From an uncultured Bacteroidales bacterium (GTDB lineage: Bacteria; Bacteroidota; Bacteroidia; Bacteroidales; JAGOPY01): a DNA stretch of 64,000 nucleotides. Where the stretch lies: NCBI GenBank assembly GCA_963701785.1, contig CAVPBC010000003.1, positions 481,556-545,555 of the forward strand, written 5' to 3'. A program made the position numbers and the translations under genes. Under the pieces are notes generated by a model. That model made no database searches and had not been told where the DNA came from. It was given only the letters and a program-made list of their open reading frames with translations. Below, in pieces: positions 2,104 to 15,705 of the stretch (its first letter is position 1; each line of letters begins with the position of its first letter).

Positions 2104-2919
2104 CTAACTTAATGCAACATCTAAAAACATCATGACGGCAAAACCTAACATCGCACCGACAGTTGAAATATCAGTTTCGTTTCCTGTTTGCGATTCCGGA
2201 ATTAATTCTTCCACAACGACAAATATCATCGCACCGGCTGCAAAAGCAAGTGCATATGGTAATAATGGTTTAACCAGAAGGACCAGTAATGCACCCAGGA
2301 CACCGAATACCGGTTCCACGGCGCCCGATAATTGTCCGTACCAGAATGCTTTGATCCTTGAAAAACCTTCACGCCTTAATGGGATCGAAACTGCTGCACC
2401 TTCCGGGAAATTCTGCAACCCGATACCAACGGCAAGTGCAACTGCAGCACCAAGGGCTTCCGGTGAAAACTCCCCCGATAATGCGCCGAATGCGACACCC
2501 ACGGCAAGACCTTCAGGAATGTTATGTATAGTAATGGCCAAAACCAGCAAGATGCTTCTCTGCCAGCTTGTTTTTCGTCCTTCGGCTTTATCTATTTCCA
2601 AACCCAGATGAAGGTGGGGGAGTATCTTGTCGATGATGAATAAAAATAATCCTCCTGAAAGGAAACCTATGACTGCAGGCAGCCATGGAATGCCACCTGC
2701 GGCCTCTTCCATGTTAATCGCCGGTAAAAGCAACGACCAGAAACTGGCAGCTATCATGACACCAGCGGCGAAGCCCAGCATGGCATTCAGTATCTTTTTG
2801 TTTATGTTTTTAAAAAAGAAAACCATTGAAGAGCCCATGGCTGTAAGACCCCAGGTAAACAGGGTTGCAATCAGGGCCATCAGGATCGGGCTGTAACCTT
2901 GTAACCACTCAGTTTTCAT
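2104..2919 (-). CDS. zupT: ZIP-family divalent metal (zinc) transporter
   Basis: 271-aa polytopic membrane ORF with '[10 protein letters not shown]' and '[10 protein letters not shown]' ZIP signature helices. Confidence 0.85.
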
Positions 2920-2971
2920 ATACTTATGTATTACTTTACGTTATATTATTCGTTCCCAAAATTAGAGTTTT

Positions 2972-3028
2972 TCCGTCCTGCCTGGACAGGCAAAATTTAA
3001 TGTCCGGGCTGGGCGCTGAGTGTTCGCC
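2972..3028 (-). repeat. half copy of the ~160-nt attC-like repeat family (array-distal end)
   Basis: 'tccgtcctgcctggacaggcaaaatttaatgtccgggctgggcgctgagtGTTCGCC' aligns with the right arm of the copies at 7369, 8193, 11205 and 12143. The complementary arm is absent. Confidence 0.7.
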
Positions 3029-3040
3029 AGGCAATGTTGT

Positions 3041-3601
3041 TTAATTTCGCAATATGGTTCCATTTAACTGAATATGATCCCATTGTCCAATAGGTTCGTT
3101 CTGATAATAAACCTGCATTTCATCTATCCACTCTCCTTTATAATTCCTTTGTAATATCGACTCCTTTAGAATAATACTTGTTACTTCACCGCCCATGGTT
3201 CCTTGAAAAAAATCATACCAGGTACGGTAATGACCAAGACTATCAGGAATAGTGAAATTTTCATTTTCTAATAAATTAATTATCAGTAGTTTAGAACTAT
3301 CATATTTTTCTTCAATACGTAATGCATCTATTTTCAAATTGTGGAAGCTGTTTTTTGAGATCGAGTCTAATAAAATATTTACTGTTTTCAATAAATCATG
3401 ATCATTTTTAATTTTGATATAATGGTCAACAACTGGAACAAATTTATAGGAAATATTTACTGAATCAAATATTTCCCTGGTTGAATAAAGAGCAAATTCA
3501 TTATCAACCTTGGATAAACTGTTAGTATTACAACCGCAAATAAAAACTGTGATAATGAAATATAATAGGATAGATGTAAGAAATTGTTTCATCTTAAACA
3601 T
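3041..3601 (-). CDS. hypothetical lipoprotein
   Basis: 186-aa ORF with an N-terminal signal and a lipobox-like 'FICGC'. I recognise no family. Confidence 0.6.
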   Translation of the reverse strand: MFKMKQFLTSILLYFIITVFICGCNTNSLSKVDNEFALYSTREIFDSVNISYKFVPVVDHYIKIKNDHDLLKTVNILLDSISKNSFHNLKIDALRIEEKYDSSKLLIINLLENENFTIPDSLGHYRTWYDFFQGTMGGEVTSIILKESILQRNYKGEWIDEMQVYYQNEPIGQWDHIQLNGTILRN

Positions 3602-3603
3602 TG

Positions 3604-3909
3604 TTAGGCCACGTTTTCTTTATACTTTTTGATAACCTTGAATTCGTCTCTTTTGACTGAAATTTCTTCCTCTAGATCAAAGTCATCTTGAAGTCCGAGC
3701 CAGAATTTTGCAGAATTACCAAAATAATTACTTAACCTGAGCGCAGTGTCAGCTGTAATCCTTCTTTTCCCTTTCAAAATTTCACTAATCCTGTTTTGAG
3801 GAATATTAATGTCCTTCGATAATTTATAAGCAGAGATCTTTAAAGGGGTTAAAAATTCCTCAAGTAGAATTTCTCCGGGATGTATATTATTCAACTTTAC
3901 CATATTCAT
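3604..3909 (-). CDS. higA: HigA-family antitoxin (XRE HTH)
   Basis: 101 aa. 'HPGEILLEEFL..ISAYKLSKDINIPQNRISEILKGKRRITADTALRLSNYFGNSAKFWLGLQ' is the canonical HigA pattern. Confidence 0.9.
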   Translation of the reverse strand: MNMVKLNNIHPGEILLEEFLTPLKISAYKLSKDINIPQNRISEILKGKRRITADTALRLSNYFGNSAKFWLGLQDDFDLEEEISVKRDEFKVIKKYKENVA

Positions 3910-3914
3910 GCATT

Positions 3915-4091
3915 TTAATGATAATCAATTATTTCGACATTATATGAGTGCCCATTATCCCAATGAAAAATAATCCTCCATTGGTCATTAATACGTATGC
4001 TATGAAAATCTTTTAATTCTCCTTTGAGTTTCTCTAAATTATTAGAAGGCGGAATAATTAAATCATTCAAATTCAAAGAATTATTTAACAT
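3915..4091 (-). pseudogene. higB: 5'-truncated HigB (RelE-like killer protein) remnant
   Basis: My own translation gives 58 aa, below the track cutoff: MLNNSLNLNDLIIPPSNNLEKLKGELKDFHSIRINDQWRIIFHWDNGHSYNVEIIDYH. This matches the C-terminal two thirds of HigB toxins. The N-terminal ~30 aa are missing, with an in-frame TGA just upstream. It ends 5 nt before higA. Confidence 0.7.
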
Positions 4092-4107
4092 TCTGAGTTT
4101 TCTTCAA

Positions 4108-4125
4108 GCGCGCTCGTTACCACCC
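4108..4125 (-). repeat. 18-nt remnant of a 160-nt-family attC-like site plus the core of the next cassette
   Basis: 'gcgcgctcGTTACCACCC'. The 'gcgcgctcgtta' part is identical to the end of the copy at 11351-11360. The rest of the repeat and the higB 5' end are deleted. Confidence 0.6.
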
Positions 4126-4139
4126 GTTTTGATATGAGT

Positions 4140-4397
4140 CTAATCGTAATGAAACCTGCATTTAGCGATTTGAATCTCATCATTTACGTTCCTATATATC
4201 AATCGATGTTCTTCGGTAATTCTTCTGGACCAAAATCCCTGGTACTTATGTTTTAAAGGCTCAGGTTTTCCTAAACCGGAATAGTGGTTTCGCGAAATAT
4301 CTTTCAATAAATTATTTATTCTGGCCATTATCTTTTTATCGTTCTGCTGCCAATACAAATAATCTTCCCAGGACTCTTCGACAAAAACATATTTCAT
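4140..4397 (-). CDS. yoeB: YoeB/Txe-family toxin (mRNA interferase)
   Basis: 85 aa. 'WEDYLYWQQNDKK...GLGKPEPLKHKYQGFWSRRITEEHRLIYR' is the canonical YoeB pattern. It overlaps yefM by 4 nt. Confidence 0.92.
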   Translation of the reverse strand: MKYVFVEESWEDYLYWQQNDKKIMARINNLLKDISRNHYSGLGKPEPLKHKYQGFWSRRITEEHRLIYRNVNDEIQIAKCRFHYD

Positions 4398-4648
4398 GAC
4401 TCAATCAGATCTTTTTGAAACGATGATCTATTTTTTAATTTTTCAATAGCTGAATCTAACCTCTGTTCATTAATCTTAGATGATAATTCATGAGAGGTTG
4501 CCTTGAGCGAATTATATTCTTCTAAAGACATGATAACTACACCAGTGTCTTTTCCTCGGTTAATGATCAGTGTTTCAAAATTCCTGGTCACATTATCCAA
4601 ATACCGTTTAATATCTTTACGGAATTCGGAAATTGTCGTTGTTAACAT
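4394..4648 (-). CDS. yefM: YefM/Phd-family antitoxin
   Basis: The real start is Met48 of track ORF 4394..4789 ('MLTTTISEFRKDIKRYLDNV...VIMSLEEYNSL'). It is preceded by AAAGGAG. The upstream extension runs into the attC-like site. Confidence 0.9.
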   Translation of the reverse strand: MLTTTISEFRKDIKRYLDNVTRNFETLIINRGKDTGVVIMSLEEYNSLKATSHELSSKINEQRLDSAIEKLKNRSSFQKDLIES

Positions 4649-4663
4649 ATTATAGCTCCTTTC

Positions 4664-4693
4664 TGTACAAAATAAGGTACAAATATACGTACA
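4664..4693 (-). promoter_or_regulatory. putative yefM-yoeB operator/promoter
   Basis: Three GTACA cores at 12-nt spacing (TGTACA 4664-4669, GGTACA 4676-4681, CGTACA 4688-4693), 16-45 nt upstream of yefM. The minus strand reads TATATTTG (4680-4687), matching the Bacteroidetes -7 consensus TAnnTTTG. TGTACA-type palindromes are the known YefM-YoeB operator core in E. coli. Confidence 0.5.
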
Positions 4694-4743
4694 AATAAGT
4701 AAACTATTGCATAATTTGGAAAAAATATATTTGATCCCAAAAT

Positions 4744-4877
4744 GGGTGGTAACGGTTACGTGTATGAGTAGTGGTGGAGTACGGGGCACTTTCCTGTCAA
4801 ACTACACCGAAATTGATGCGAGGTCGAATGCTCGAATACGCTACAAGCTCCGCCATTACTTATACACGATGTTATTC
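4744..4877 (-). repeat. attC-like imperfect palindrome (unique sequence)
   Basis: GGGTGGTAAC...GTTATTC. The arms 'gtgtatgagtagtggtggagt' and 'gctccgccattacttatacac' are near-complementary. Confidence 0.7.
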
Positions 4878-4987
4878 CCCTGTAATTTTATATCACTTTT
4901 TATTATTTTTAGCAGTTCCCGTTTTATGTGCACAAAATACTATCCGGAGTATCTGTTTGATAAAAGGTCCTCGCTAATCACAATCAT

Positions 4988-6670
4988 TTATTTTAGCAAT
5001 ACGACACCAATCAATAGTCCGGCAAAGAGAATACCTATACTGATCAATATCCACCACCAGAGTTTACCCCATTTAGGAATCATAATTTCCCCGTCACCAT
5101 CTGTAAGAATAGTCCATGATCGAAATTCTTTTTTTAAGGCCCAGCGTTGAAAAAGGAAAATTAATAATCCGCCCGGCAGAGCGCCCAGAACGACAATTGC
5201 CCACCAGGTCATCACGGGCAAGTATGACAGCGGCAATAAAAGAGACATATTCAGACTCATATTCACCAGTGGTAAAGCCACTGGTGTTATCCCTCCCAGA
5301 CCTATGAACGTTGTAACCAATACCAGAGGAAGGCATTGTAATAAAAATAGTCCGGCATTCTTATTGCAGACAGGAGCCAGAAAAACCATATGGAACACCA
5401 ATCCCAGAATTATTGGCAGGCTCAACATCACGGACACTTGAATTTGCCAACTAACATTCCCGGATAACATACTTAACATAAGAATTGCAATCGACACGGT
5501 GTATGAGACCACGACAGGTATAAGATTTCCAATCGTTTCAATGATGACTTTCTGACAGAAAGTCGTTTTACATCTCTTTAATGCGAAAAATCCTGCCATC
5601 AAAGCAATCGGACCTAGAAACACCACAGCGGTTATCCAAAAACGGAATCCCCTATTATATAGCCCCCTGTTGAGGAACAACAAAATCAAACTTATCAACA
5701 GGATTACAGGCCAGCTTATACCGACAATCCAGTTTGTCCGGAGGTTAGCCCGGGCCGAATGATATCGCCTGGCAGCTTCCTGCTGCACGTCCTCAGGAAA
5801 AAGTTTGCTTAGTGGCCCCGGTTCACGGGGATTGGATAGTTCGTTTTTAACATTTAACACAACAGGATGATCATATTGGAAGAAAAAATAGATATAGACA
5901 ACTCCATGAACCAAATCGGCTACCATTGTTTCAATCGTCCAGCTGGAACCTTTTTCCATATGGACGGCATCCATAATAGCTGTTGCATCCCTGAAACTTA
6001 ATGGACCCTCTTTTTCAAGCAAGGGGCCCAGCAATTCATAAGCTTTGTCATAACGCCAGCAAGGATATCCAAAACTATTGGAATGATTGGCTACATTGAA
6101 ATTTGTGGACACCAGGAATCCATCACCCGGTGGTTTTCGTGTGAACACCATTTCGCCATCTTCACCAGCACTTATAATAACAGCGTCACCCGTGGCATCT
6201 GCAAAATGCAGTTGGTCGTGCATATACGGATAGTGTTGATGGAGATTGGCCCACCTGATAACTTCCTCAACCCTGGAGCATTCATGCATTATCTGCATGA
6301 TATAATGATGGTAGTATTCTCCTTTAACCAGGATTCGCTCTTTGTGCGGATTGATATCAAATCTTGGTAATCCGTTTGCATCGTATGCCAATCCTTTCTC
6401 GTTTACCCCCTGTTGGGGATTATCCGGTGTACCAATCCATATTACTCCGTATTTGGAAGAGTCGCCCGGTTCCACCCAATAGTAGGAATCCGGATTGATG
6501 TAATCGTCATTTCCTCCGAAAAAAACACTATCTCCCTTTGATATAGTAATTATCGAACATCCGGAGTGAAAAGTCTTGGTATCAGAAGGTTCATCTGAAT
6601 AAATTTGTTGAGCACAGATTTCTAATACCGCAATTAGTATAAATAAATTAATGAGTAGAAGTTTCTTCAT
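4988..6670 (-). CDS. Ntn-hydrolase (peptidase C45 / choloylglycine-hydrolase-like) domain fused to a polytopic membrane domain
   Basis: 560 aa with a signal peptide. 'HSGCSIITI' is a candidate nucleophile Cys, followed by 'GGNDDY' and 'GVNEKGLAYD' as in C45/C59 Ntn hydrolases. From residue ~310 there are about 8 hydrophobic helices. Confidence 0.6.
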   Translation of the reverse strand: MKKLLLINLFILIAVLEICAQQIYSDEPSDTKTFHSGCSIITISKGDSVFFGGNDDYINPDSYYWVEPGDSSKYGVIWIGTPDNPQQGVNEKGLAYDANGLPRFDINPHKERILVKGEYYHHYIMQIMHECSRVEEVIRWANLHQHYPYMHDQLHFADATGDAVIISAGEDGEMVFTRKPPGDGFLVSTNFNVANHSNSFGYPCWRYDKAYELLGPLLEKEGPLSFRDATAIMDAVHMEKGSSWTIETMVADLVHGVVYIYFFFQYDHPVVLNVKNELSNPREPGPLSKLFPEDVQQEAARRYHSARANLRTNWIVGISWPVILLISLILLFLNRGLYNRGFRFWITAVVFLGPIALMAGFFALKRCKTTFCQKVIIETIGNLIPVVVSYTVSIAILMLSMLSGNVSWQIQVSVMLSLPIILGLVFHMVFLAPVCNKNAGLFLLQCLPLVLVTTFIGLGGITPVALPLVNMSLNMSLLLPLSYLPVMTWWAIVVLGALPGGLLIFLFQRWALKKEFRSWTILTDGDGEIMIPKWGKLWWWILISIGILFAGLLIGVVLLK

Positions 6671-6736
6671 TTTGGTTTTCTATTTTACTCATTTATTTTT
6701 ATTATCAATCATTCTCGGTGTTTGTTTTTTTATGAG

Positions 6737-6864
6737 GCATAACGTTTCGCTTGCAGATTCCGTGGCGGCTCGCGCAGCAGATTCTCTTCGGAAAGATAAT
6801 GATTTTGCGGTGAAAGAACTCAAAATTAGTTTAATGCCGTCATGGAATTTGCAAGCTGTTACCA
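6737..6864 (-). repeat. attC-like imperfect palindrome (unique sequence)
   Basis: GCATAAC...GTTACCA. The arms 'gcttgcagattccgtggcggc' and 'gccgtcatggaatttgcaagc' are near-complementary. Confidence 0.75.
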
Positions 6865-6884
6865 ATAGCCAGAATTTTGAATAA

Positions 6885-7340
6885 TTAACTACTTAAAGAT
6901 TTGATAATTGTTTCGACTAAAATTGTGTACTCATCTTCGCTTTGATTTATAAAACTTATATGGTTAGCTTTAATTACTTTTTCTTCGATATCCAATAGGA
7001 TATTTTTGAATTTCATGTGATCAATTTTATTCCATAAAACAGGAATTATAGGGCGATTAGAACTATTAAACATTCTAAATTCCCAATTACACCATTCGCT
7101 ATGAAGCCAATCAGGTGAAAGAAGTACAAGCAAAATTTTTGAATTATTTAGATGTGATTCGAGTATGGGTTTAAAATAATTTTTATGCGCATTTGATGTT
7201 ATATTGTCTTTGTCGTAGAATATCGAAATGTTTGAGTCTATTATTTTGAGCTTTTTTTCTAACTTATCGGCAAATTGTTTTACCGCATTAAAATTTTTCT
7301 CCTTTGACCAAGTATAACTCACGAATATTTCAATTGACAT
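6885..7340 (-). CDS. stand-alone TIR-domain protein
   Basis: 151 aa. 'IFVSYTW' (beta-A), 'FYDKD' and 'ILLVLLSPDWLHSEWCNWEF' (S-x-WC-x-x-E with the conserved Glu) are TIR hallmarks. There is no fused domain. Confidence 0.8.
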   Translation of the reverse strand: MSIEIFVSYTWSKEKNFNAVKQFADKLEKKLKIIDSNISIFYDKDNITSNAHKNYFKPILESHLNNSKILLVLLSPDWLHSEWCNWEFRMFNSSNRPIIPVLWNKIDHMKFKNILLDIEEKVIKANHISFINQSEDEYTILVETIIKSLSS

Positions 7341-7368
7341 AGTTACAGGTTATTTTTTGACTGGTTAT

Positions 7369-7529
7369 TGGTAACGCTCAGCGCAGCGCCCTGGGCCGGG
7401 TTAATTTGCACGGGCAGGCGGGCGCAAGCTAGCTCAAAGTTACTAATTCAAAGATCAACGTGACAATACCGCCCGCCTGACCGGGCAAAGTTTTTAGCGT
7501 CCGGCCTGGGCGATGCGCGAATGTTACCG
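7369..7529 (-). repeat. attC-like site, 160-nt family copy
   Basis: TGGTAAC gctcagcgcagcgccctgggccggg ... ccggcctgggcgatgcgcgaat GTTACCG. The long arms are complementary with bulges. Confidence 0.8.
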
Positions 7530-7685
7530 GCCGGCCATAGATCGTTGGAATTGCGCACTTCTTTTGCGAAAGTATTCGATAATCTGCTCTGGAGTCATAC
7601 CAGAAATTTCTTCAGTGATTTTCGCCCTGATGTCACGCATCAATTTGACTGAGTCGAAGGTTTTATTTAATGTATCAGTCTTCAT
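7524..7685 (-). CDS. small protein downstream of and overlapping the PIN gene; putative antitoxin partner
   Basis: 53 aa from 'MKTDTLNKTFDSVKLMRDIRAKITEE..'. Its ATG overlaps the PIN stop (gattATGAAGACTGA). Its stop codon TAA is the TTA of core GTTACCG. The function is inferred from context only. Confidence 0.45.
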   Translation of the reverse strand: MKTDTLNKTFDSVKLMRDIRAKITEEISGMTPEQIIEYFRKRSAQFQRSMAGR

Positions 7686-8136
7686 AATCGATAATATCTT
7701 TAGGTGAACGAATTTCAAGGGTTGGATAACCGTTTAAAATATTGATTGCATTATACCCCCTGATTCTTTTAAGATTGACGATGTGCTTAAAATTCCAGGA
7801 AACTAAAACGTCAATATTATTGATTGTGGCCAAAGCAATATGTAAACAGTCATCTAAACTGGCTTGACCAACTACATTTTCTTTAATATATTCCTGAGCC
7901 AATGAAATTACTTCTGGACTAATAGACACAATCTCAGGTTGAAGATTCAAATTATTAATCAGATCTTTAACATTTTGAGGGGCTCGAATCAATTCACTCT
8001 GAGTCAGGTCTGAGATAACCAATTCAAAATCATGATCTTGGAATTTTTTGAACAATCTTTTTGATTCGTCCTCAAATTCAGGATCGAAGTAACCTCCAAT
8101 GACCGAAGTGTCGATATAGATTTTTAGCTTTCTCAT
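7675..8136 (-). CDS. PIN-domain ribonuclease (VapC-like toxin)
   Basis: 153 aa. 'KIYIDTSVIGGY' (first acidic residue), 'DDCLHIALA' and 'LVSWNFKHI' fit the PIN fold signature. Confidence 0.8.
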   Translation of the reverse strand: MRKLKIYIDTSVIGGYFDPEFEDESKRLFKKFQDHDFELVISDLTQSELIRAPQNVKDLINNLNLQPEIVSISPEVISLAQEYIKENVVGQASLDDCLHIALATINNIDVLVSWNFKHIVNLKRIRGYNAINILNGYPTLEIRSPKDIIDYED

Positions 8137-8192
8137 TGATACAAAGATACGAAATATTGATCGAGCTAATATTGTAATATTATCTGGCTGGC

Positions 8193-8352
8193 CGGTAACG
8201 CTCAGCGCAGCGCCCTGGGCCGGGTTATTTGGCCGGGCAGGCGGGCGCCCGCTAGCTCAAAGTTACTAAATCAAAGATCAAAGTGACAATACCGCCCGCC
8301 TGACCGGGCAAAATTTTTAATGTCCGGCCTGGGCGCTGCGCTTCCGTTAGGC
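8193..8352 (-). repeat. attC-like site, 160-nt family copy
   Basis: CCGGTAAC...GTTAGGC, near-identical to the copies at 7369, 11205 and 12143. Confidence 0.8.
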
Positions 8353-9246
8353 CCCGATTGTAATTCCAGCAGATAGTAGATTTGAGTAAAATTCTAGTTT
8401 GTTTAAAGTCGAGCTAGGCAACGTATTATATTTAATTTCAGTTGCTTTAAAAGTACTTTTAAAAAGTACTATAAACTTAGTTAATAATAGCTTAGATAAG
8501 AGCATAATAAGGTGACCATGGGAATTATTTGATGAATGTCTAAGATCCATTCCATCTAAATTCATTATGCTTAATCCTGTAGTATGTGCGTGAGCCGAAA
8601 GTAGATTATAAAGACTTTTCGAATGATCTGCGTGGATTTTAGAAAAATCCATTAATTTATTCCAACCATTAAATAATCTAGGCTCACCTTTTTCAATTAT
8701 TTGCTTTTGCTGATTTGCTGTGAACTTTTTAAAATAATCTGATTCAGTAATTTTCTTTCTGAACAATCGTATTTCTTCTTGATCTTTAAGTTTCTTTTCT
8801 TTTAAGAATTCTCCTTTGTGATAATATTCATTTCTTGAAATTAATCCACTGTAAATCCAATTGTAGTATCTGAATTGTATTTCATCTTCAGTTTTTGGTT
8901 GACAATAAATGAAATCGAAAATTAAAAAATTTTCAAGTTGCGCTCTTAGTAAGATGTAAAGACCAGAAATATCAAGAAATTTAGCCTTTAATTCAATGTA
9001 TTTTGAATCAATATCTTGACCCTTTAATAACTCAAGGATGGAATTACAATTTAATATGGTTTTTGTTGCTAATGTACTGATACGGTTTTTATATTCAGGT
9101 ATTTCAATTTTGCTTGTTATCAAATGAGTTTGAAGCATTATAAGTATATCCACAAATTGCAAACTCTCTTCTGCACCATCTTTAATGTTTTGCCTAAGAT
9201 GCATCAAATAGACACTTAAAATATCATGATTCTTTTGCGAAATCAT
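8347..9246 (-). CDS. hypothetical protein (cassette cargo)
   Basis: 299-aa AT-rich ORF, helical and K/E-rich. I recognise no motif. Its stop codon lies inside core GTTAGGC. Confidence 0.6.
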   Translation of the reverse strand: MISQKNHDILSVYLMHLRQNIKDGAEESLQFVDILIMLQTHLITSKIEIPEYKNRISTLATKTILNCNSILELLKGQDIDSKYIELKAKFLDISGLYILLRAQLENFLIFDFIYCQPKTEDEIQFRYYNWIYSGLISRNEYYHKGEFLKEKKLKDQEEIRLFRKKITESDYFKKFTANQQKQIIEKGEPRLFNGWNKLMDFSKIHADHSKSLYNLLSAHAHTTGLSIMNLDGMDLRHSSNNSHGHLIMLLSKLLLTKFIVLFKSTFKATEIKYNTLPSSTLNKLEFYSNLLSAGITIGA

Positions 9247-9262
9247 AAATAATACAATTGGG

Positions 9263-9394
9263 GCCTAACGGTTTGCAGCTATGCCCTGTAGCCGTTTTAC
9301 GGGGTTCGTCACTGTCAATCGGCATAATGTTTCTGCGGGGTACGCTGTTTCAACTTGCACTTTTATAGGCTATTGGGCATAGTTGCTGTTATGC
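9263..9394 (-). repeat. attC-like imperfect palindrome (unique sequence)
   Basis: GCCTAAC (a perfect RYYYAAC) ... GTTATGC. The arms 'gcagctatgccctgtagcc' and 'ggctattgggcatagttgc' are complementary. Confidence 0.8.
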
Positions 9395-9401
9395 ACAGAA
9401 T

Positions 9402-10118
9402 TTAATATATCTCTTTCTTTTTAATTTTTAATCCACTTAGTTCATAAAGCATCATACATAATTCTTTTATCTCTGATCCTTTTCCACTTTGTCTATAAAC
9501 CATATTGTATTTGCCATTTTTTCTCGCTTCAAAAATCCACTCTGCACCATCCATTATTATCATATTACTCCATTCAACTGTAGGTATTTCCCAGAAGTTA
9601 AGATTATAGATTTTGCTTATTACATCATCCCATTGACTTTCTGTTATTTGTATTGTATCATTTTGAACTAATTTTCCAGGACTATATCCGCCTGCTCCGT
9701 TTGTTCTCTTCACAAACAGCAAGTATTCGTTGTTCCTTTTTTCAAGTCGAATAGAAATGGGATTATGAAATGTTCGTAGCCAAGGAAAACGATATGTTTC
9801 AAAATCATAGTCTTTGTATAATTTTGGTTCGTTAAGCCCTGTCAATTGTTTAGAAAACCATGTATTTACAAACAATGCTAATTCTTTGCTTTTTTGATAG
9901 AATAAACTATCCTTTTCTTGCCTATAAACATTAACAGTATCAATTAAAAGTCGTGTTGGAAAATATAAAAGATTTGTGTCTTTACAGTAATACTGGTCAG
10001 TCACATCTATTGTGTCTTTCCCATTAATAAAAGTCATTTTTTGTCCTTGAACATTTAGTATCAAGTTCATCAAAAAAAGAATCAAAATAAGTTTAGTAGG
10101 TCTTATAATTTTGTGCAT
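9402..10118 (-). CDS. hypothetical secreted protein (cassette cargo)
   Basis: Start is at Met54 of track ORF 9402..10277 ('MHKIIRPTKLILILFLMNLILNVQG', signal-like). The upstream 53 codons lie inside the repeat. The ATG sits inside core GTGCATAAC. Confidence 0.6.
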   Translation of the reverse strand: MHKIIRPTKLILILFLMNLILNVQGQKMTFINGKDTIDVTDQYYCKDTNLLYFPTRLLIDTVNVYRQEKDSLFYQKSKELALFVNTWFSKQLTGLNEPKLYKDYDFETYRFPWLRTFHNPISIRLEKRNNEYLLFVKRTNGAGGYSPGKLVQNDTIQITESQWDDVISKIYNLNFWEIPTVEWSNMIIMDGAEWIFEARKNGKYNMVYRQSGKGSEIKELCMMLYELSGLKIKKKEIY

Positions 10119-10431
10119 AACGCTCCAGCGCAGCGCCCTGGCCCGGGTTATTTGGCCGGCCAGGCGGCGGCGTGAGGATGTAAAGTTAGATATTAGTAAT
10201 GCAAATTGCAAACAGATCCCTCGCTGCGCTCGGGATGACGCGGTTGACGGATGAAAACAGAAGCGGCGCGGCACCAAGGAAGAATGTAGTTCCGACTTTA
10301 CTTTGCGCCGCGCCGCTCTGGTTTTGATCCCCTCAAGTCGTCATCCCGAAGCGCAGCGAGGGATCTTTTGCGCCCCGCCTGACCGGGCAAAATTTTTAGC
10401 GTCCGGGCTGGGTGCTGCGCGTTCGTTATGT
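10115..10431 (-). repeat. attC-like site with 160-nt-family arms and an enlarged loop
   Basis: The arms match the family. The usual 44-nt loop is replaced by ~200 nt containing a second hairpin element. Confidence 0.7.
10214..10366. repeat. nested palindromic element inside the attC-like loop
   Basis: 'agatccctcgctgcgctcgggatgacg' (10214-10240) pairs with 'cgtcatcccgaagcgcagcgagggatct' (10339-10366). There is an inner stem 'cagaagcggcgcggc' / 'gcgccgcgccgctctg'. Confidence 0.7.
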
Positions 10432-10493
10432 GTAGCAGAGCATTAAAAATTAAGTCAGGCTTAGTTCTTGATTTTCTAATTCGATTTTGAGCT

Positions 10494-10775
10494 TTACGTT
10501 AGTTCCAGTGCATGAAATATCTTGATTACCGTTCCTATAGTCATATTCCTGCTATTTTTTTCAAGTTTGGAAATTTCGGATTTATTGACCCCAATTAATT
10601 GTCCTAATTCCTCCTGGGTCATGTTTCTCTCTTTCCTTGTTTTTTTAATCATTTCCCCAAGGATCTCCATTTTTAAATCAAATTCATATTGATCCCGATC
10701 AGGGGTACCACGTTTACCAATATATTTGTCCTTGAATTGGTCCAGTGTGATTCCTTGTTGAGCTTGCTTTGCCAT
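10494..10775 (-). CDS. XRE-family HTH antitoxin
   Basis: 93 aa. 'MTQEELGQLIGVNKSEISKLEKNSRNMTIGTVIKI' is an HTH_XRE. It lies 4 nt downstream of the toxin gene. Confidence 0.8.
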   Translation of the reverse strand: MAKQAQQGITLDQFKDKYIGKRGTPDRDQYEFDLKMEILGEMIKKTRKERNMTQEELGQLIGVNKSEISKLEKNSRNMTIGTVIKIFHALELT

Positions 10776-10779
10776 TGTA

Positions 10780-11115
10780 TTATGCTTTAAAATATTCTAA
10801 TCTAATCTTCAATGCTTTTTGAATTTCTGACTTTGGAGTTTTTTGTGATTTTTTAATAAAGCCATGAGTACAAATTACCAATGTGTTTTGATTATCAGTT
10901 TTATCCCAGAATGCTAATAATCTATAATCATTTGATTGAAAGCTTGTTCTAAATTCCCATATATCATCATTCAATTTCTTGAATAAATTTGGATCGAGCA
11001 TAATTCGTGCTTTATCAATGTTGAAAACAATTTTGTTTCTTGCTTTAATGTCTAAGGTAGTCAGAAAGATCTCGACTTCACTTAAAAAGACAACATTAAA
11101 ATGCTCTATCATCAT
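10780..11115 (-). CDS. RelE/HigB-superfamily toxin (phage Gp49-like)
   Basis: 111 aa. 'DIWEFRTSFQSNDYRLLAFWDK....LVICTHGFIKKSQKTPKSEIQKA' is the Gp49/HigB-like pattern. Confidence 0.8.
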   Translation of the reverse strand: MMIEHFNVVFLSEVEIFLTTLDIKARNKIVFNIDKARIMLDPNLFKKLNDDIWEFRTSFQSNDYRLLAFWDKTDNQNTLVICTHGFIKKSQKTPKSEIQKALKIRLEYFKA

Positions 11116-11204
11116 TATTTAAGTTGAAATGCAAAAATAGTAAAGTTTCCATATAAAGCAACAATTGGATTAAAAAAAGGAAAATTTAATACTGCCCTGT
11201 TACA

Positions 11205-11363
11205 CATAACGCTCAGCGCAGCGCCCTGGGCCGGGTTAATTTGGCCGGGCAGGCGGGCGCCCGATAGCTCAAAGTTACAAAATCAAAGATCAATGTGACA
11301 ATACCGCCCGCCTGACCGGGCAAACTTTTAATTTCCGGCCTGGGCGCTGCGCGCTCGTTATGT
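11205..11363 (-). repeat. attC-like site, 160-nt family copy
   Basis: ACATAAC...GTTATGT. It is most similar to the copy at 12143. Confidence 0.8.
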
Positions 11364-11375
11364 GTAGCCTTTTTG

Positions 11376-12110
11376 TCATTTCGCGGTAATTGTGAAAGTC
11401 CCGCCTAACAAAAGTTCATAGTTGTCTTTTGTTTTGCAAAGGGCTTTCCATTCAGTTATCGAGTTATCGTCAAGAAAAAGAGAGATTATTCTTTCTCTAT
11501 CCATTAATGGTTTTATTTCAAAGTCTGTCGCTGTTTCGAGCTCCGCTAATTTTCTATCTAAAATGTCAAACACTGTTTCATTGTCTAATTCAGATACAGC
11601 TAAAATGTGATTTTTTCTCAACGGCATAAAATATGGAAAGTCGCCAAACATATTATTAGTTGTGTCCCATTTATAAAGAGAGATCAAATCAAATTTTGTT
11701 AGTCTTTTAATTGAATTCTGCCTATCCAATTCAGGAACTAATTTTTTAAATCTTGCGAATTCATTAATTGTCAGCCAAAAGGATCCTTTTTGTCGCATTG
11801 AATAAGGTGGAGCATAGTCTCCTCTGTTAGCTTCATCGAATAGTTTTTGAAATGCCGGAATAAAAAATATAAAATTGTCACATTGTCTAATGGCGACCCA
11901 ATTTCCAGAAGCACATTGGTAGATTCCACACTCGTTGCAGATTATAGTTTGAAAAATTTGTTCATCTTCAATTTCCCCGTCTAATGCCTCAACTATATTT
12001 ATAAAATCTTCGCCATCAACTGTCAAAACTGTGAAATTCGCCATTCCTTGTCCAGAAGAGGTAAAGTCATATTGTTTTTTATAAGTTCCGAAGTTTGTTG
12101 ATGTCCACAT
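11376..12110 (-). CDS. hypothetical protein (cassette cargo)
   Basis: 244-aa intact ORF with a Cys cluster 'CNECGIYQCASGNWVAIRQC'. I recognise no family. Confidence 0.6.
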   Translation of the reverse strand: MWTSTNFGTYKKQYDFTSSGQGMANFTVLTVDGEDFINIVEALDGEIEDEQIFQTIICNECGIYQCASGNWVAIRQCDNFIFFIPAFQKLFDEANRGDYAPPYSMRQKGSFWLTINEFARFKKLVPELDRQNSIKRLTKFDLISLYKWDTTNNMFGDFPYFMPLRKNHILAVSELDNETVFDILDRKLAELETATDFEIKPLMDRERIISLFLDDNSITEWKALCKTKDNYELLLGGTFTITAK

Positions 12111-12142
12111 TATGTTATTCTAGAGCCAATATAAAAGGTTAC

Positions 12143-12302
12143 ACATAACGCTCAGCGCAGCGCCCTGGGCCGGGTTAATTTGGCCGGGCAGGCGGGCGCC
12201 CGATAGCTCAAAGTTACTAAATCAAAGATCAACGTGACAATACCGCCCGCCTGACCGGGCAAAATTTTAATGTCCGGCCTGGGCGATGCGCGTCCGTTAT
12301 GT
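12143..12302 (-). repeat. attC-like site, 160-nt family copy
   Basis: ACATAAC...GTTATGT. Confidence 0.8.
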
Positions 12303-13197
12303 GTAGCCTTTTTGTCATTTCGCGGTAATTGTGAAAGTCCCGCCTAACAAAAGTTCATAGTTGTCTTTTGTTTTACCAAAGTGGCATTACATTCAGTTAC
12401 TGAATTATAGTCAAGAAAAAGAGATGATTATTCCTCTTCATTGCTATCCATTAATGGTTTTATTTCAAAGTCTGGTTCGCTGTTTCGAGCGATCCGCTAA
12501 TTTCATCTATTTGCTTAAAGATAGGTCAATCGACACTGTTTCAATATGTCATAATTCAGCATAGCAGCTAAATGTTATTTCTCAATGGCATAAAACTATG
12601 GAAAGTCGCCAAACATTTTATTAGTTGTAATCCCATTTATAAAGAGAGATCATAATCAAATTTTGTTAGTCATTTTAATTGAATTCTGCCTATCCAATTC
12701 AGGAACTAATTTTTTAAATCTTGCGAACCTTCATTAATTGTCAGAAGCCGTTAAAAGGATCGCTTTTATTGTTGCAAGAGTTGAATAAGGTGGATGCCTA
12801 TAGTCTCAACACTGTTAAAAACCACTGCTTCAATCGATCCATATTTTTGACAATAGCCAAAAATAGCTGAGTGAAAAAGATAGCGATTAAAATGAATTTC
12901 GTCACATTGTCTAATGCGCCATGACGGCTGCATATTCCCAGAAGCACATTGTGTACGATTCTCACTGTCAATCGTTGCAGAATGTATCAGCGTGAAAAAT
13001 TTGTTCAACTTGCAATTTTACAGTCTAATGGCCATCAACTATATGTTATCACAAAATCTTAACCATCATACTGTCAAAACTGTGAAATTCGCCATTCACT
13101 TGTTCATGAAGCAGGTAAAGTCATATTGTTTTTTATAAGCTCCGAAGTTTGTTGATGTCCACATTATGTCTATTCTAGAGCCAATATAGAAGGTTAC
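12303..13197 (-). pseudogene. decayed paralogous copy of cassette 11376..12110
   Basis: The first ~75 nt and last ~80 nt are (near-)identical to cassette 11364-12142. The interior is alignable by eye but carries many substitutions and 1-10-nt insertions (909 vs 793 nt). Only short ORF fragments remain. Confidence 0.8.
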
Positions 13198-13301
13198 ACA
13201 TAACGGTTGGCCGCTAAAACCAGTGCGTGGAACATATTAGGGATCGCATTAAGCGATTCCGAGGTATTGACCAGCATTAGGTTTTTAGCGGCATGTTAGC
13301 T
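13198..13301 (-). repeat. attC-like imperfect palindrome (unique sequence, 104 nt)
   Basis: ACATAAC ggttGGCCGCTAAAACC ... GGTTTTTAGCGGCatg GTTAGCT. Confidence 0.7.
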
Positions 13302-13544
13302 GATGTATTCCATTGTCTTTTTATAAATGTTTGAATACCATGAAAATTTCAGAATATATCCTCTTAAATATTGATCTCTATCAACTAAGGACTGCAAAAA
13401 CAATCACCCACAAGCAATACAAATGGATTATCAGAAGGATCCAGTAAAACTACTCTCCAAAGCATAAAGCCAAAGTATAATTTTGGTTCGTAACCGTCAA
13501 TTGTCAGACAAAGCACAAAGTATTACAAGCATTGCTGTTTGCCT

Positions 13545-13758
13545 TTATAAACCATTTTTGATAAATGGTTTATATTTGTTTTGCCTACAAGTATAAGGTA
13601 GCATGTAAAAGCCGAATGGTATTGCAATATCGGCAAAGTAGCTATGAAAATGGCTATGTACAGTATTCACTGCAGCCCATATCGTGTCTCCAATTATAAA
13701 GAGGGCTGCAATTGTAAGTAACGTGATAATCTACTATTAGTTTATTTTGTTGTTTCAT
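13545..13758 (-). pseudogene. frameshifted small membrane-protein gene (decayed cassette)
   Basis: My own translation: 'MKQQNKLIV' then a frame change into 'IITLLTIAALFIIGDTIWAAVNTVHSHFHSYFADIAIPFGFYMLPY..'. The unit is bounded by GTTAGCTGATG (13295) and ..TATGCTAAC (13790). Confidence 0.35.
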
Positions 13759-13880
13759 ATATTTTGAAAAGGAATCATATCTATGCTAACGTTTGTGCAA
13801 ACGCACTGGTCTTGTTATATCATATCCATGCGGTTAAAGAAGTCATGTTACACGCCATCAATTGGTGTGTATCTTGACCT

Positions 13881-14181
13881 TTATACTGCCCTGGATTCCA
13901 ACGATGCCATAAGTGAAATGTCTTCATCTATTTTTTTCCAATGTATCCCTTAGCCCGACGGAGTAACCTCAAAATCCTGTAAATCCTCTTCTGTAGCTAC
14001 CACAAGGCGTGGCGACAAATCCCTTAAATTATATTTATTTTCCTTACCATCGACTTTAAGAATCAGCCATGGCGTGGATAAATGTACTTGATCTATGCTT
14101 AAAATAGATTTCATTGCTCTAAAGATAATTAAAAATTTCATACCATCTCCTCCAACCGGATTCTCTTAAAATAGATGGCAT
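13881..14181 (-). pseudogene. remnants of a DUF4160/DUF2442 gene pair
   Basis: 'MPSILRESGWRRW..' (from 14181) resembles a DUF4160 N-terminus and stops after 20 codons. Track ORF 13950..14141 ('LILKVDGKENKYNLRDLSPRLVVATEEDLQDFEVTPSG') is DUF2442-like. An in-frame TAA at 13950-13952 is followed by 'GIHWKKIDEDISL', the expected continuation. Confidence 0.5.
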
Positions 14182-14208
14182 AAACTGCTTAATCTTTGCT
14201 CCAATAAT

Positions 14209-15312
14209 TCATTCCAAATCCAAATTATCAAACGGACTTTTTATCTTATCTAGCCCTCGCTTGGTTATATGTGTGTAAATCTCTGTTGTCTTAGGACTCT
14301 GGTGACCCAATAATGATTGTATATAACGTAAATCTGTACCATGCTCAAGCAAATGGGTCGCAAAACTGTGCCTTAAGGAATGTACTGTTGCTTTCTTTTT
14401 AATACCGGCTTTGTGTTTGGCCAGCCTGAATACTTTCTGAACACTGGTCGGCGAATATTGCCCACCGAATTGCCCTTCAAACAACCATTCCCTTGGTTTG
14501 TACATCTTGAAATATTCACGCAATAAGGTCAATACCCTTACTGACAATATCGTTACCCTGTCCTTTTGACCCTTTCCCTGTTTTACAATCACCAGCATCC
14601 TTTTAGAATCAATATCATGGATCTTTAAATTGATCATCTCACCCAATCTTAGGCCTGTTGAATAAATTAGTGATAACATGGCCCTGTGTTTCAGGTTTTT
14701 TGCACATTTTAACAGCATGGCTACCTCCTCCTCACTCAATACATTCGGCAAAACTTTCGGCTTTTTCGGCCGCTGGATGTAATATGTCTTCACGGGCCGG
14801 CCCAAAACCTGCTCGTAGTAAAATTTGATGGCATTGATCGACTGGTTCTGGTAGGAGATGCTCACATCCCTCTTTTCAATTAGGTATAGCAAATACTCCC
14901 TGACCTGCTCATCGGTTATCTTTTCGGGATCCAGGTCCTTGTAATAAACAAGAAATTCCTGCATCATCGACCTGTAGGTCCGGATCGTATTCGGACTGTA
15001 ATTCTTCAGCAACATCGTTTTCACAAATTCTTCCGGGACCAAATCTACCTTCCCCTCTTCCCCTTTTCCCCTCTTCTCCTGGTCTCCCGGTCTCCCGGTC
15101 TCCTCTTCAAACGTCAGGAATCCTTCAAATTTCAGATTCAGCTTCTCCACGCCACCCGCCTGCGTTGCCACATGCCAGCACCTCTCCTTCGGGTTCCACC
15201 TCGCCCCTGGAATGGTTTTAATTAAATCAATAATCTCCCTGTCGTAAGGGAAATGGAGCTTTAACCGCTCTTTGCCTTCTATAAGGCCTTTTTCAATAGT
15301 TATCTTTTTCAT
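14209..15312 (-). CDS. tyrosine site-specific recombinase (Xer-like catalytic domain with an extra ~95-aa N-terminal domain)
   Basis: 367 aa. 'STGLRLGEM' (Arg I), 'KGQKDRVTIL', 'HSLRHSFATHLLEHGTDLRYIQSLLGH' (H-x-x-R, H) and 'TEIYTHI' (catalytic Tyr). The N-terminus has 'IPGARWNPKERCWHV'. An octamer-repeat-encoded linker gives 'ETGRPGDQEKRGKGEEGK'. Confidence 0.9.
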   Translation of the reverse strand: MKKITIEKGLIEGKERLKLHFPYDREIIDLIKTIPGARWNPKERCWHVATQAGGVEKLNLKFEGFLTFEEETGRPGDQEKRGKGEEGKVDLVPEEFVKTMLLKNYSPNTIRTYRSMMQEFLVYYKDLDPEKITDEQVREYLLYLIEKRDVSISYQNQSINAIKFYYEQVLGRPVKTYYIQRPKKPKVLPNVLSEEEVAMLLKCAKNLKHRAMLSLIYSTGLRLGEMINLKIHDIDSKRMLVIVKQGKGQKDRVTILSVRVLTLLREYFKMYKPREWLFEGQFGGQYSPTSVQKVFRLAKHKAGIKKKATVHSLRHSFATHLLEHGTDLRYIQSLLGHQSPKTTEIYTHITKRGLDKIKSPFDNLDLE

Positions 15313-15561
15313 CCTGTTTCAGATTTTTTTACCACTAATAGGAACATTAGTGGTCAATAGAAAGCACAATAGGGTTGAATGCTATTTATAACCTGATATT
15401 CAATACTTAACAGTAAGTTACACGGAGGACCGCAGAGTTATTCGCAGAGATACATTGAGAATACGCTCTGTGACCCTCTGTGAAAAACTCTGTGAACCTC
15501 TGTGAGAACTTATTCTTATACTTAATCCGGAAAATTGAAAAAAATACCCGGTGGGAGAGGG

Positions 15562-15689
15562 GAAAAGGTGAAAAGGTGAAAAGGTGACAAGGTGACAAGG
15601 TGAAAAGGAGACAAGGAGACAAGGAGACAAGGAGAAGAGGAGAAGAGGAGAAGAGGAGAAGAGGAGACAAGGAGAAATGGGGAAATGTT
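15562..15689. repeat. tandem octamer array (~16 x GAMAAGGW)
   Basis: gaaaaggt x3, gacaaggt x2, gaaaagga, gacaagga x3, gaagagga x4, and so on, read directly. It lies upstream of the recombinase gene. Confidence 0.9.
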
Positions 15690-15705
15690 AAAAGTAATTT
15701 AAAAT

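Follow-up and report, generated by a model that had tools for sequence, protein, structure and literature searches.

Can a TIR domain on its own, without a fused sensor or effector and without a partner gene, serve a bacterium as a complete defense against phages? The question is raised by a 64,000-nt stretch of DNA from an uncultured Bacteroidales bacterium (contig CAVPBC010000003.1, positions 481,556 to 545,555 of the forward strand), the whole of which we refer to as the window. An open reading frame (ORF) in this window, 6885..7340 on the − strand, encodes a TIR protein of 151 amino acids (aa) that an earlier, sequence-only reading took to be a compact defense or abortive-infection module, or else a producer of signals. 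The evidence, in the form of family membership and genomic context, is consistent with that proposal. From its sequence, the product appears to be an intact TIR-only enzyme, predicted to be catalytically competent, housed in a sedentary, chromosomal, integron-like array. The explanation we like best, and hold tentatively, is a TIR NADase or cyclase that phages trigger and that needs no other component: an abortive-infection module on a promoterless, single-gene cassette.

The gene is real, and it encodes a complete TIR domain without fusion. It begins with ATG, specifies a protein of 17.9 kDa, is low in GC (27.9%), and contains the motifs quoted in the earlier reading, IFVSYTW and LLVLLSPDWLHSEWCNWEF. 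The protein scores above the curated cut-offs of three Pfam models—TIR_2 (45.9 bits; cut-off 28), ThsB_TIR (42 bits; 21.2) and TIR (28.4 bits; 21.3)—where membership of the TIR domain is taken as a PF13676 or PF01582 score over the curated gathering threshold. The AlphaFold2 model, built from an alignment of 17 sequences (pLDDT 86.4, pTM 0.84), has the flavodoxin-like arrangement of five beta-strands alternating with helices (strands at residues 3–8, 38–41, 67–74 and 98–102, and a two-residue strand at ~128–129). These elements fill residues 3–150, so that no part of the protein lies outside the TIR fold. When the model was compared with the PDB by Foldseek, the best 28 matches were all TIR domains (TM 0.46–0.67), with Hydra TRR-2, RPPT-TIR, SPARTA TIR-APAZ, AbTir and MyD88 among the top ones; deoxyribosyltransferases were also returned, at weaker scores. 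A fold search of BFVD found giant-virus TIRs and phage deoxyribosyltransferases and nothing else, and PHROGs gave weak matches to families of unknown function and no others. The proposal of a minimal TIR fold, with neither sensor nor effector attached, is thus borne out by the Pfam models, the predicted structure and the Foldseek matches alike.

The residues expected of an enzymatic TIR domain are present, too. A profile of 25 family members matches best to plant TIR domains (flax L6, 4.7e-11), PdTIR, BtpA/TcpB and AbTir. In pairwise alignment with AbTir, SEWCNWEF pairs with KDWTNYEL, and FYDK with WYDE. This places W83 and E87, of the alpha-C WxxxE motif, opposite AbTir W204 and E208; D43, the beta-B Asp, opposite D167; and S8, at the beta-A Ser position, opposite S140. 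The glutamate that had been proposed as catalytic therefore does align with that of AbTir. Mutation of S140, D167, W204 or E208 abolishes the NADase activity of AbTir, and W204, which is conserved in TIRs that produce cyclic ADP-ribose (cADPR) isomers, is needed for 2'cADPR production (PMC11374754). Among 25 stand-alone relatives, F6, Y9, F41, D43, C84 and E87 are invariant, and S8, K13, S75, W78, S81 and W103 nearly so, which indicates purifying selection acting on the active site. In fold, and in possessing the Ser, the Asp and the WxxxE motif, the protein resembles AbTir, PdTIR, BtpA-TcpB and the plant TIRs L6, RPP1 and RPPT-TIR, its best matches in sequence and structure; its SxWCxxE motif, moreover, is as found in plant TIRs. 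Those proteins, however, bear N-terminal coiled-coil or targeting regions, or nucleotide-binding leucine-rich-repeat (NB-LRR) domains, whereas the window's TIR has none.

The gene has a cassette to itself: a single promoterless ORF followed by an imperfect palindrome with the ...AAC and GTT... cores of an attC site, the organization of integron cassettes. If its limits are put at the crossover point usual for such cores, G|TT, it occupies 632 bp of the − strand (6743..7374), starting at 7374 with the TT in the R' core upstream and finishing at 6743 with the G in its own R' core. The core sequences define these limits, as does complementarity between the cassette ends over 12 of 13 nt, and the same rule applies in neighboring cassettes. 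The attC-like site (6743..6870, − strand, 128 nt) consists of an R'' core, GGCTATTGGTAAC, a 21-bp imperfect stem and an R' core, GTTATGC. Folded as DNA, its + strand reaches −23.2 kcal/mol (z −2.76) and its − strand −18.9 kcal/mol (z −1.37), three G·T wobbles being available to the + strand only. The 13-nt inverted repeat said to bound the cassette, GTTACCAATAGCC (6858–6870) and GGTTATTGGTAAC (7363–7375), is genuine: the window has just these two matches, where 0.17 would be expected, and two were reached in one of 100 shuffles. The repeats do not mark the cassette ends, however. One belongs to the cassette's own attC-like site, as its R'' core, and the other is the R' remnant, G|TTACCAATAACC, at its 5' end (7363..7375, − strand), 22 nt ahead of the ATG. 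Those 22 nt leave no room for a promoter, and no sigma-70-like site occurs on the − strand between 7374 and 7341. Nor does the cassette contain a partner gene, as had been noted: its only other ORF of 40 aa or more, a 77-aa frame on the + strand over the attC-like site, is probably spurious. The gene has just one further record, L002, which matches the window with 100% identity across 1135 bp and so is uninformative on mobility.

Relatives of the protein are scarce, and they keep no constant company. Homologs of the same size that align over their full length are 47–52% identical; the closest relatives overall, at 43–52% identity, are rare, and come from marine Flavobacteriaceae. Searching 1.84 billion representative sequences with HMMER gave 170 matches at E ≤ 1e-3, and two at E ≤ 1e-30. 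Of the best 150 representative relatives, about 70 are no longer than 200 aa, i.e. TIR-only, and TIR integron cassettes have been reported (PMC11089894); the earlier view that a solitary TIR is unusual was overstated. Among 185,579 species genomes—scanned with a 5-sequence alignment, the 25-sequence alignment having no stretch conserved enough—there were just two close relatives, in a Flavobacteriaceae metagenome-assembled genome (MAG) and a Dokdonia MAG; marine metagenomes supplied two further, syntenic loci. A conserved partner gene can be rejected, for the neighbors are unrelated in L001/L007, L008, L016/L017 and P0002. Upstream of the close relatives lie, variously, a Cyclase (PF04199), a sulfotransferase (Sulfotransfer_3), and an extracytoplasmic function (ECF) sigma factor with a protein of unknown function; two ~280-aa upstream proteins gave a BLASTP E of 0.54 when compared. 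In P0002 the downstream gene alone is known, and is a DinB. No attC-like hairpins occur around the Flavobacteriaceae homologs, so those copies are not cassettes. A 42%-identical relative of 161 aa (L006:8107–8591), on the other hand, is the sole gene of a cassette (8063–8864) in a canonical integron with classic attC sites and a truncated integrase. TIR-only genes of this kind have been packaged as cassettes more than once.

More distant relatives occur in multi-TIR islands (L003, 2851–13592; L022, 565–3816), and the broader family sits in neighborhoods of the conflict type. The islands contain a TIR-WD40 protein of 621 aa, and TIR_2 proteins of 508, 272, 470 and 212 aa. In L025 (111–5262), a 165-aa distant TIR-only relative directly follows hsdM and hsdS of a Type I restriction–modification system; the TIR gene overlaps the gene of a Ser/Thr kinase, and after the latter comes that of a CyanoTRADDas_TM/LTD protein. 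This locus may be a multi-gene TIR defense operon. In two syntenic marine loci a homolog (L016:5026–6468) comes after the ECF sigma factor and a protein of 131 aa and unknown function, with gaps of no more than 25 nt; an EAD11 (Effector-associated domain 11) protein is encoded 3 kb upstream in L016 only (2626–3159).

How might such a protein work? In Escherichia coli, TIR-V and TIR-VI, as well as TIR-IX, work as single-protein, short-TIR antiphage systems (Wang et al., Nat Commun 2024, PMC11350192), which need the TIR catalytic residue, and whose response is triggered by portal or tail-fiber proteins (PMC11350192). The window's TIR answers to the same description: one gene, a TIR domain with little beyond it, the catalytic residue present, and no partner. 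The likeness is one of description, and whereas these systems are enterobacterial and have native promoters, this one resides in an integron-like cassette. SpbK, the abortive-infection protein of ICEBs1 in Bacillus subtilis, is a comparable case, in which one gene with a TIR domain is borne by a mobile element; the protein is reportedly larger than the window's TIR, with a non-TIR N-terminal region. SpbK is reported to deplete NAD+ on sensing a phage protein (PMC11984713).

Integrons, too, are known to accumulate genes of this sort. Chromosomal integron cassettes are enriched in streamlined defense systems (Darracq preprint); that both sedentary and mobile integrons act as reservoirs of such systems is established (Darracq 2025, Kieffer 2025, Getz 2025); and among the integron cassettes of plant microbiomes, TIR-domain proteins have been remarked on as a class (Ghaly group, PMC11089894). 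The TIR cassette shares with integron defense cassettes its small size, its single promoterless gene, its position in an array rich in toxin–antitoxin (TA) genes, and its 'streamlined' version of a known immune domain. It departs from them in its Bacteroidota platform, in a recombinase without the IntI insertion, whose gene runs in the cassettes' direction, and in the predicted non-canonical asymmetry of the attC-like hairpins. Single-protein short-TIR systems, TIR integron cassettes and 'streamlined' defense cassettes, then, have all been published already.

On the explanation we favor, the protein would be inactive as a monomer or low-order form until a phage component—a portal, tail or similar structural protein, in known cases—drove TIR domains to assemble with one another. 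Composite active sites would then form around the WxxxE glutamate, E87, and NAD+ would be cleaved. A cyclic ADPR isomer may be a further product, given that the protein has W83, the tryptophan linked to cyclase activity. Loss of NAD+ would halt the infected cell. Expression would have to come by read-through from upstream cassettes, or by relocation of the cassette towards the head of the array.

Several things weigh against this account. The cassette is promoterless and some nine cassettes removed from the recombinase, and so may be silent. The search for effectors stayed within the 64-kb window, over the array and the nearest flanking genes, and an unlinked effector could be encoded elsewhere in the genome. 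Models of Thoeris proteins match weakly (NCBIfam ThcB4, 26.6 bits against a cut-off of 220; PADLOC ThsB1, E 1e-7), and by its sequence the protein appears to belong to no validated defense family. Its close homologs, finally, occupy ordinary chromosomal contexts rather than defense islands. For these reasons we favor a self-contained, phage-triggered module without much conviction, though it suits the gene better than the alternatives we have considered.

One of these is that the protein is an orphan ThsB-like signal generator, making a cADPR isomer or an ADPR conjugate upon infection for an effector (ThsA SIR2/SLOG, Macro-TM, caspase-like or similar) whose gene lies at another place in the genome. 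Small size and a TIR domain alone are traits of ThsB proteins, too. The window's TIR resembles those of Thoeris types I–IV in this respect, in its above-threshold match to Pfam ThsB_TIR, and in having the Trp and Glu of the cyclase/NADase motif, W83 standing where AbTir has the tryptophan needed for 2'cADPR; the PADLOC ThsB1 match, weak as it is, points the same way. Unlike ThsB, however, it has no ThsA or other effector beside it: neither ThsA-type genes (SIR2/SLOG, Macro) nor other effectors were found by Pfam and PADLOC among the array proteins, where there are TA modules only, nor were effectors found among ten flanking ORFs scanned (15.7–37.3 kb), all of them housekeeping. No neighbor is conserved across five homolog contexts, either, and the NCBIfam Thoeris model is far under its cut-off. 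Without an adjacent effector, and with the curated models below their cut-offs, the protein should not be classed as ThsB. Besides, if a mobile cassette of one gene needed a partner encoded elsewhere, it would be of no use once transferred. We consider an orphan signal generator rather unlikely. Affiliation with CBASS or Pycsar fares no better, since the CAP12-PCTIR_TIR model scores 13.3 bits against a cut-off of 24.7, the protein has no extra domain that could be a fused cyclic-nucleotide sensor (SAVED/STING/CAP12 type), and the array contains no cyclase gene.

The cassette could also be a silent passenger, an unexpressed item in the array's 'biobank' without current function in its host, whatever it could do biochemically. 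It has no promoter, and no more than the 22 nt between its start and the ATG in which to accommodate one; it is remote from the recombinase end; its GC content of 28%, compared with 45% in the host, implies foreign origin; and other cassettes in the array are decaying, among them a degenerate duplicate (12300–13170) and one with an N-terminally truncated HigB. The TIR ORF is nevertheless intact, full-length by comparison with its homologs, and retains all of the family-invariant residues, and neighboring TA cassettes probably have promoters able to read through it. Dormancy of this sort strikes us as a little less probable again than an orphan signal generator, but it is compatible with a self-contained TIR module, not exclusive of it.

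A third possibility, that the protein is an effector aimed at a host or a competitor, in the manner of TcpB/BtpA/TcpC, is very unlikely. TIR integron cassettes from plant microbiomes have been interpreted in this way, as agents of 'host immune regulation' (PMC11089894), and the best profile matches of the family, to flax L6, PdTIR, BtpA and TcpB, lend the notion some color. Beta-A begins at residue 3, however; the protein is without a signal peptide, an N-terminal targeting or coiled-coil region, or a Type IX secretion system (T9SS) C-terminal domain, and the sources of its relatives are metagenomes and marine Flavobacteriaceae that are free-living. Least probable of all is a non-immune, nucleotide-processing enzyme of the TIR/nucleoside 2-deoxyribosyltransferase fold class, for although deoxyribosyltransferases figure among the weaker Foldseek matches, the sequence models assign the protein to TIR proper, and WxxxE/SxWCxxE is the signature of TIR NADases, not of deoxyribosyltransferases.

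The array to which the TIR cassette belongs spans ~11 kb (2969..14208, − strand) and comprises about a dozen cassettes, with all genes pointing one way and a GC content of 36%, compared with 45% in the flanks; the TIR cassette is about ninth from the recombinase. According to Pfam its cargo is of a kind typical for integrons and includes the truncated HigB with HigA, YoeB/YefM, PIN and Gp49/HTH proteins, and several proteins of unknown function. On one side it is flanked by genes for a ZIP transporter and a glycosyltransferase, and on the other by an rsmE-like methyltransferase gene and genes for a T9SS-sorted protein and cytochrome oxidases; housekeeping genes on both flanks suggest that the element is chromosomal and its host one of the Bacteroidota/FCB group. 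GC-rich, imperfect palindromes of 117–170 nt (one of ~305 nt), running from ...TAAC to GTTA..., set the genes apart. These attC-like sites occur at 4745–4905, 6743–6870, 7363–7530, 8186–8352, 9260–9400, 10126–10431, 11198–11363, 12137–12303 and 13206–13300. The site of the PIN cassette immediately upstream of the TIR cassette (7363..7530, − strand; ~168 nt, GC 57%) is of type X, one of five copies of its kind, recognized through repeat families D2, D4 and D6; its + strand folds at −48.4 kcal/mol (z −6.16). Scanning the window with Rfam and for tRNAs yielded nothing.

The cores of these sites are chimeric. The two ends of any one cassette are complementary—12 of 13 nt in the TIR cassette, 13 of 14 in the PIN cassette, 16 of 17 in a cassette for a 299-aa protein, and likewise in the 232-aa and Gp49/HTH cassettes—whereas the two cores of any one site in the array agree over only ~6 nt (GGTAAC/GTTACC in the case of 7363–7530). 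Complementarity that extends past the 7-nt core at cassette ends, but not between the cores of a site, is the signature of cassettes inserted independently. The alternative of taking the + strand as the 'top' strand of the cassettes is ruled out on several counts: ORF stop codons lie within or beside the R'' cores of the − strand (the TAA within GCCTAAC at 8347–8349, for example); duplicated cassettes have the ORF and its downstream attC in common, at 96% identity; the + strand is the more stable, as expected of the bottom strand that recombines; and the recombinase is at the high-coordinate end.

Some cassettes have peculiarities of their own. Two in tandem, 11205–12149 and 12144–13205, are duplicates that comprise a 244-aa ORF of unknown function and a type X attC; the attC and the 3' end of the ORF are 96% identical, and the reading frame of the second copy has degenerated. 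The type X site at 10126–10431 owes its ~305 nt to a nested, strongly self-complementary insert of ~140 nt in its loop, with arms at 10211–10230 and 10350–10369, and at 10230–10281 and 10298–10349. An unusually large cassette (4988–6670, − strand), with a host-like GC content of 42%, specifies a protein of 560 aa, the N-terminus of which resembles a signal peptide; it matches CBAH (choloylglycine hydrolase) weakly, and its C-terminal half is long, hydrophobic and multi-pass. The HigB-like ORF (3915–4091, − strand) covers positions 35–91 of the 91-position Pfam model, and the last attC-like site (2969–3040), beside the ZIP transporter gene, is a half site only; together these hint that the array is decaying at its far end.

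The platform departs further from the usual than the TIR gene does. At its head, upstream of the cassettes and co-directional with them, is the gene for an Xer/IntI-like tyrosine recombinase (14209..15312, − strand; Pfam Phage_integrase and SAM_4). The protein exceeds the cut-off of NCBIfam NF040815 (235.9 bits; cut-off 220) and falls below that of the integron-integrase model TIGR02249 (223.9 bits; cut-off 265). Aligned with VchIntIA (2a3v), its residues 100–296 correspond to IntI 13–211, and 288–363 to IntI 244–319: the IntI-specific insertion of ~32 aa (IntI ~212–243) is missing, and on this point the platform differs from an integron, whose integrase carries that additional domain. In the PDB the enzyme matches XerA best, in one contiguous alignment, and its N-terminus is extended by ~90 aa. 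The IntI insertion is the part of the integrase that reads extrahelical bases. In published work IntI is defined by this insertion, and tools that define integrons in the same way would not call elements such as this one complete integrons. Around the recombinase gene are two curiosities. Just upstream, at 15534–15700, are ~21 tandem repeats of 8 nt (AAGGTGAA / AAGGAGAC / AGAGGAGA), and within its coding region, at 15049–15109, is an inverted, 84%-complementary copy of them, in the Glu/Gly/Lys-rich linker.

The attC-like sites are odd as well. By minimum-free-energy folding, the + strand is more stable in every type of site in the window, by virtue of G·T wobbles, and extra unpaired bases lie near the R box on the arm that flanks the beginning of the ORF to follow, in all of the window's site types and in those of L019. 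In the canonical L006 array, analyzed as a control, two single-base bulges lie on the arm beside the preceding stop codon, as expected. We conclude, with moderate confidence, that the extrahelical bases of the predicted window structures are not on the canonical R''–L'' arm. This architecture recurs in other Bacteroidota. Recombinase homologs of 63–73% identity (L019:10001–11092; L020 and L021:10001–11254) are found on other Bacteroidota contigs, in each case upstream of, and co-directional with, small TA-type genes, and the attC-like sites of L019 (12495–12655 and 19329–19490) are of the same sequence family and orientation as those of the window. Bacteroidota metagenomes yield at least 7975 members of the recombinase family at E ≤ 1e-40; the best 120 relatives listed are 52–86% identical, and mostly full length. 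Bacteroidota are a clade previously found without integrons, according to the Darracq preprint, unlike a review that lists integrons among them.

A more ambitious interpretation combines gene and platform. The TIR cassette would belong to an uncharacterized class of integron-like platforms in Bacteroidota, with an Xer/XerA-like recombinase that lacks the IntI insertion and whose gene, upstream of the cassettes, shares their direction, and with unpaired bases on the arm opposite to that of canonical attC sites; and the TIR protein would be a fully self-sufficient module, sensor and effector in one, in which the fold itself senses the phage and which the platform moves about. Taken as a whole, this is more than we are inclined to believe, and we regard it as improbable.

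If the protein does act alone, it would add to the few single-protein TIR immune modules one that is very small, at 18 kDa, and distinct in phylogeny, and would offer a convenient minimal model of the way in which a bare TIR fold detects its trigger and is held in restraint. It would also widen the idea of integron cassettes as a defense biobank from Vibrio and the Proteobacteria to the Bacteroidota. The platform may matter more than the TIR gene itself, the recombinase family being very large in the metagenomes of that phylum.

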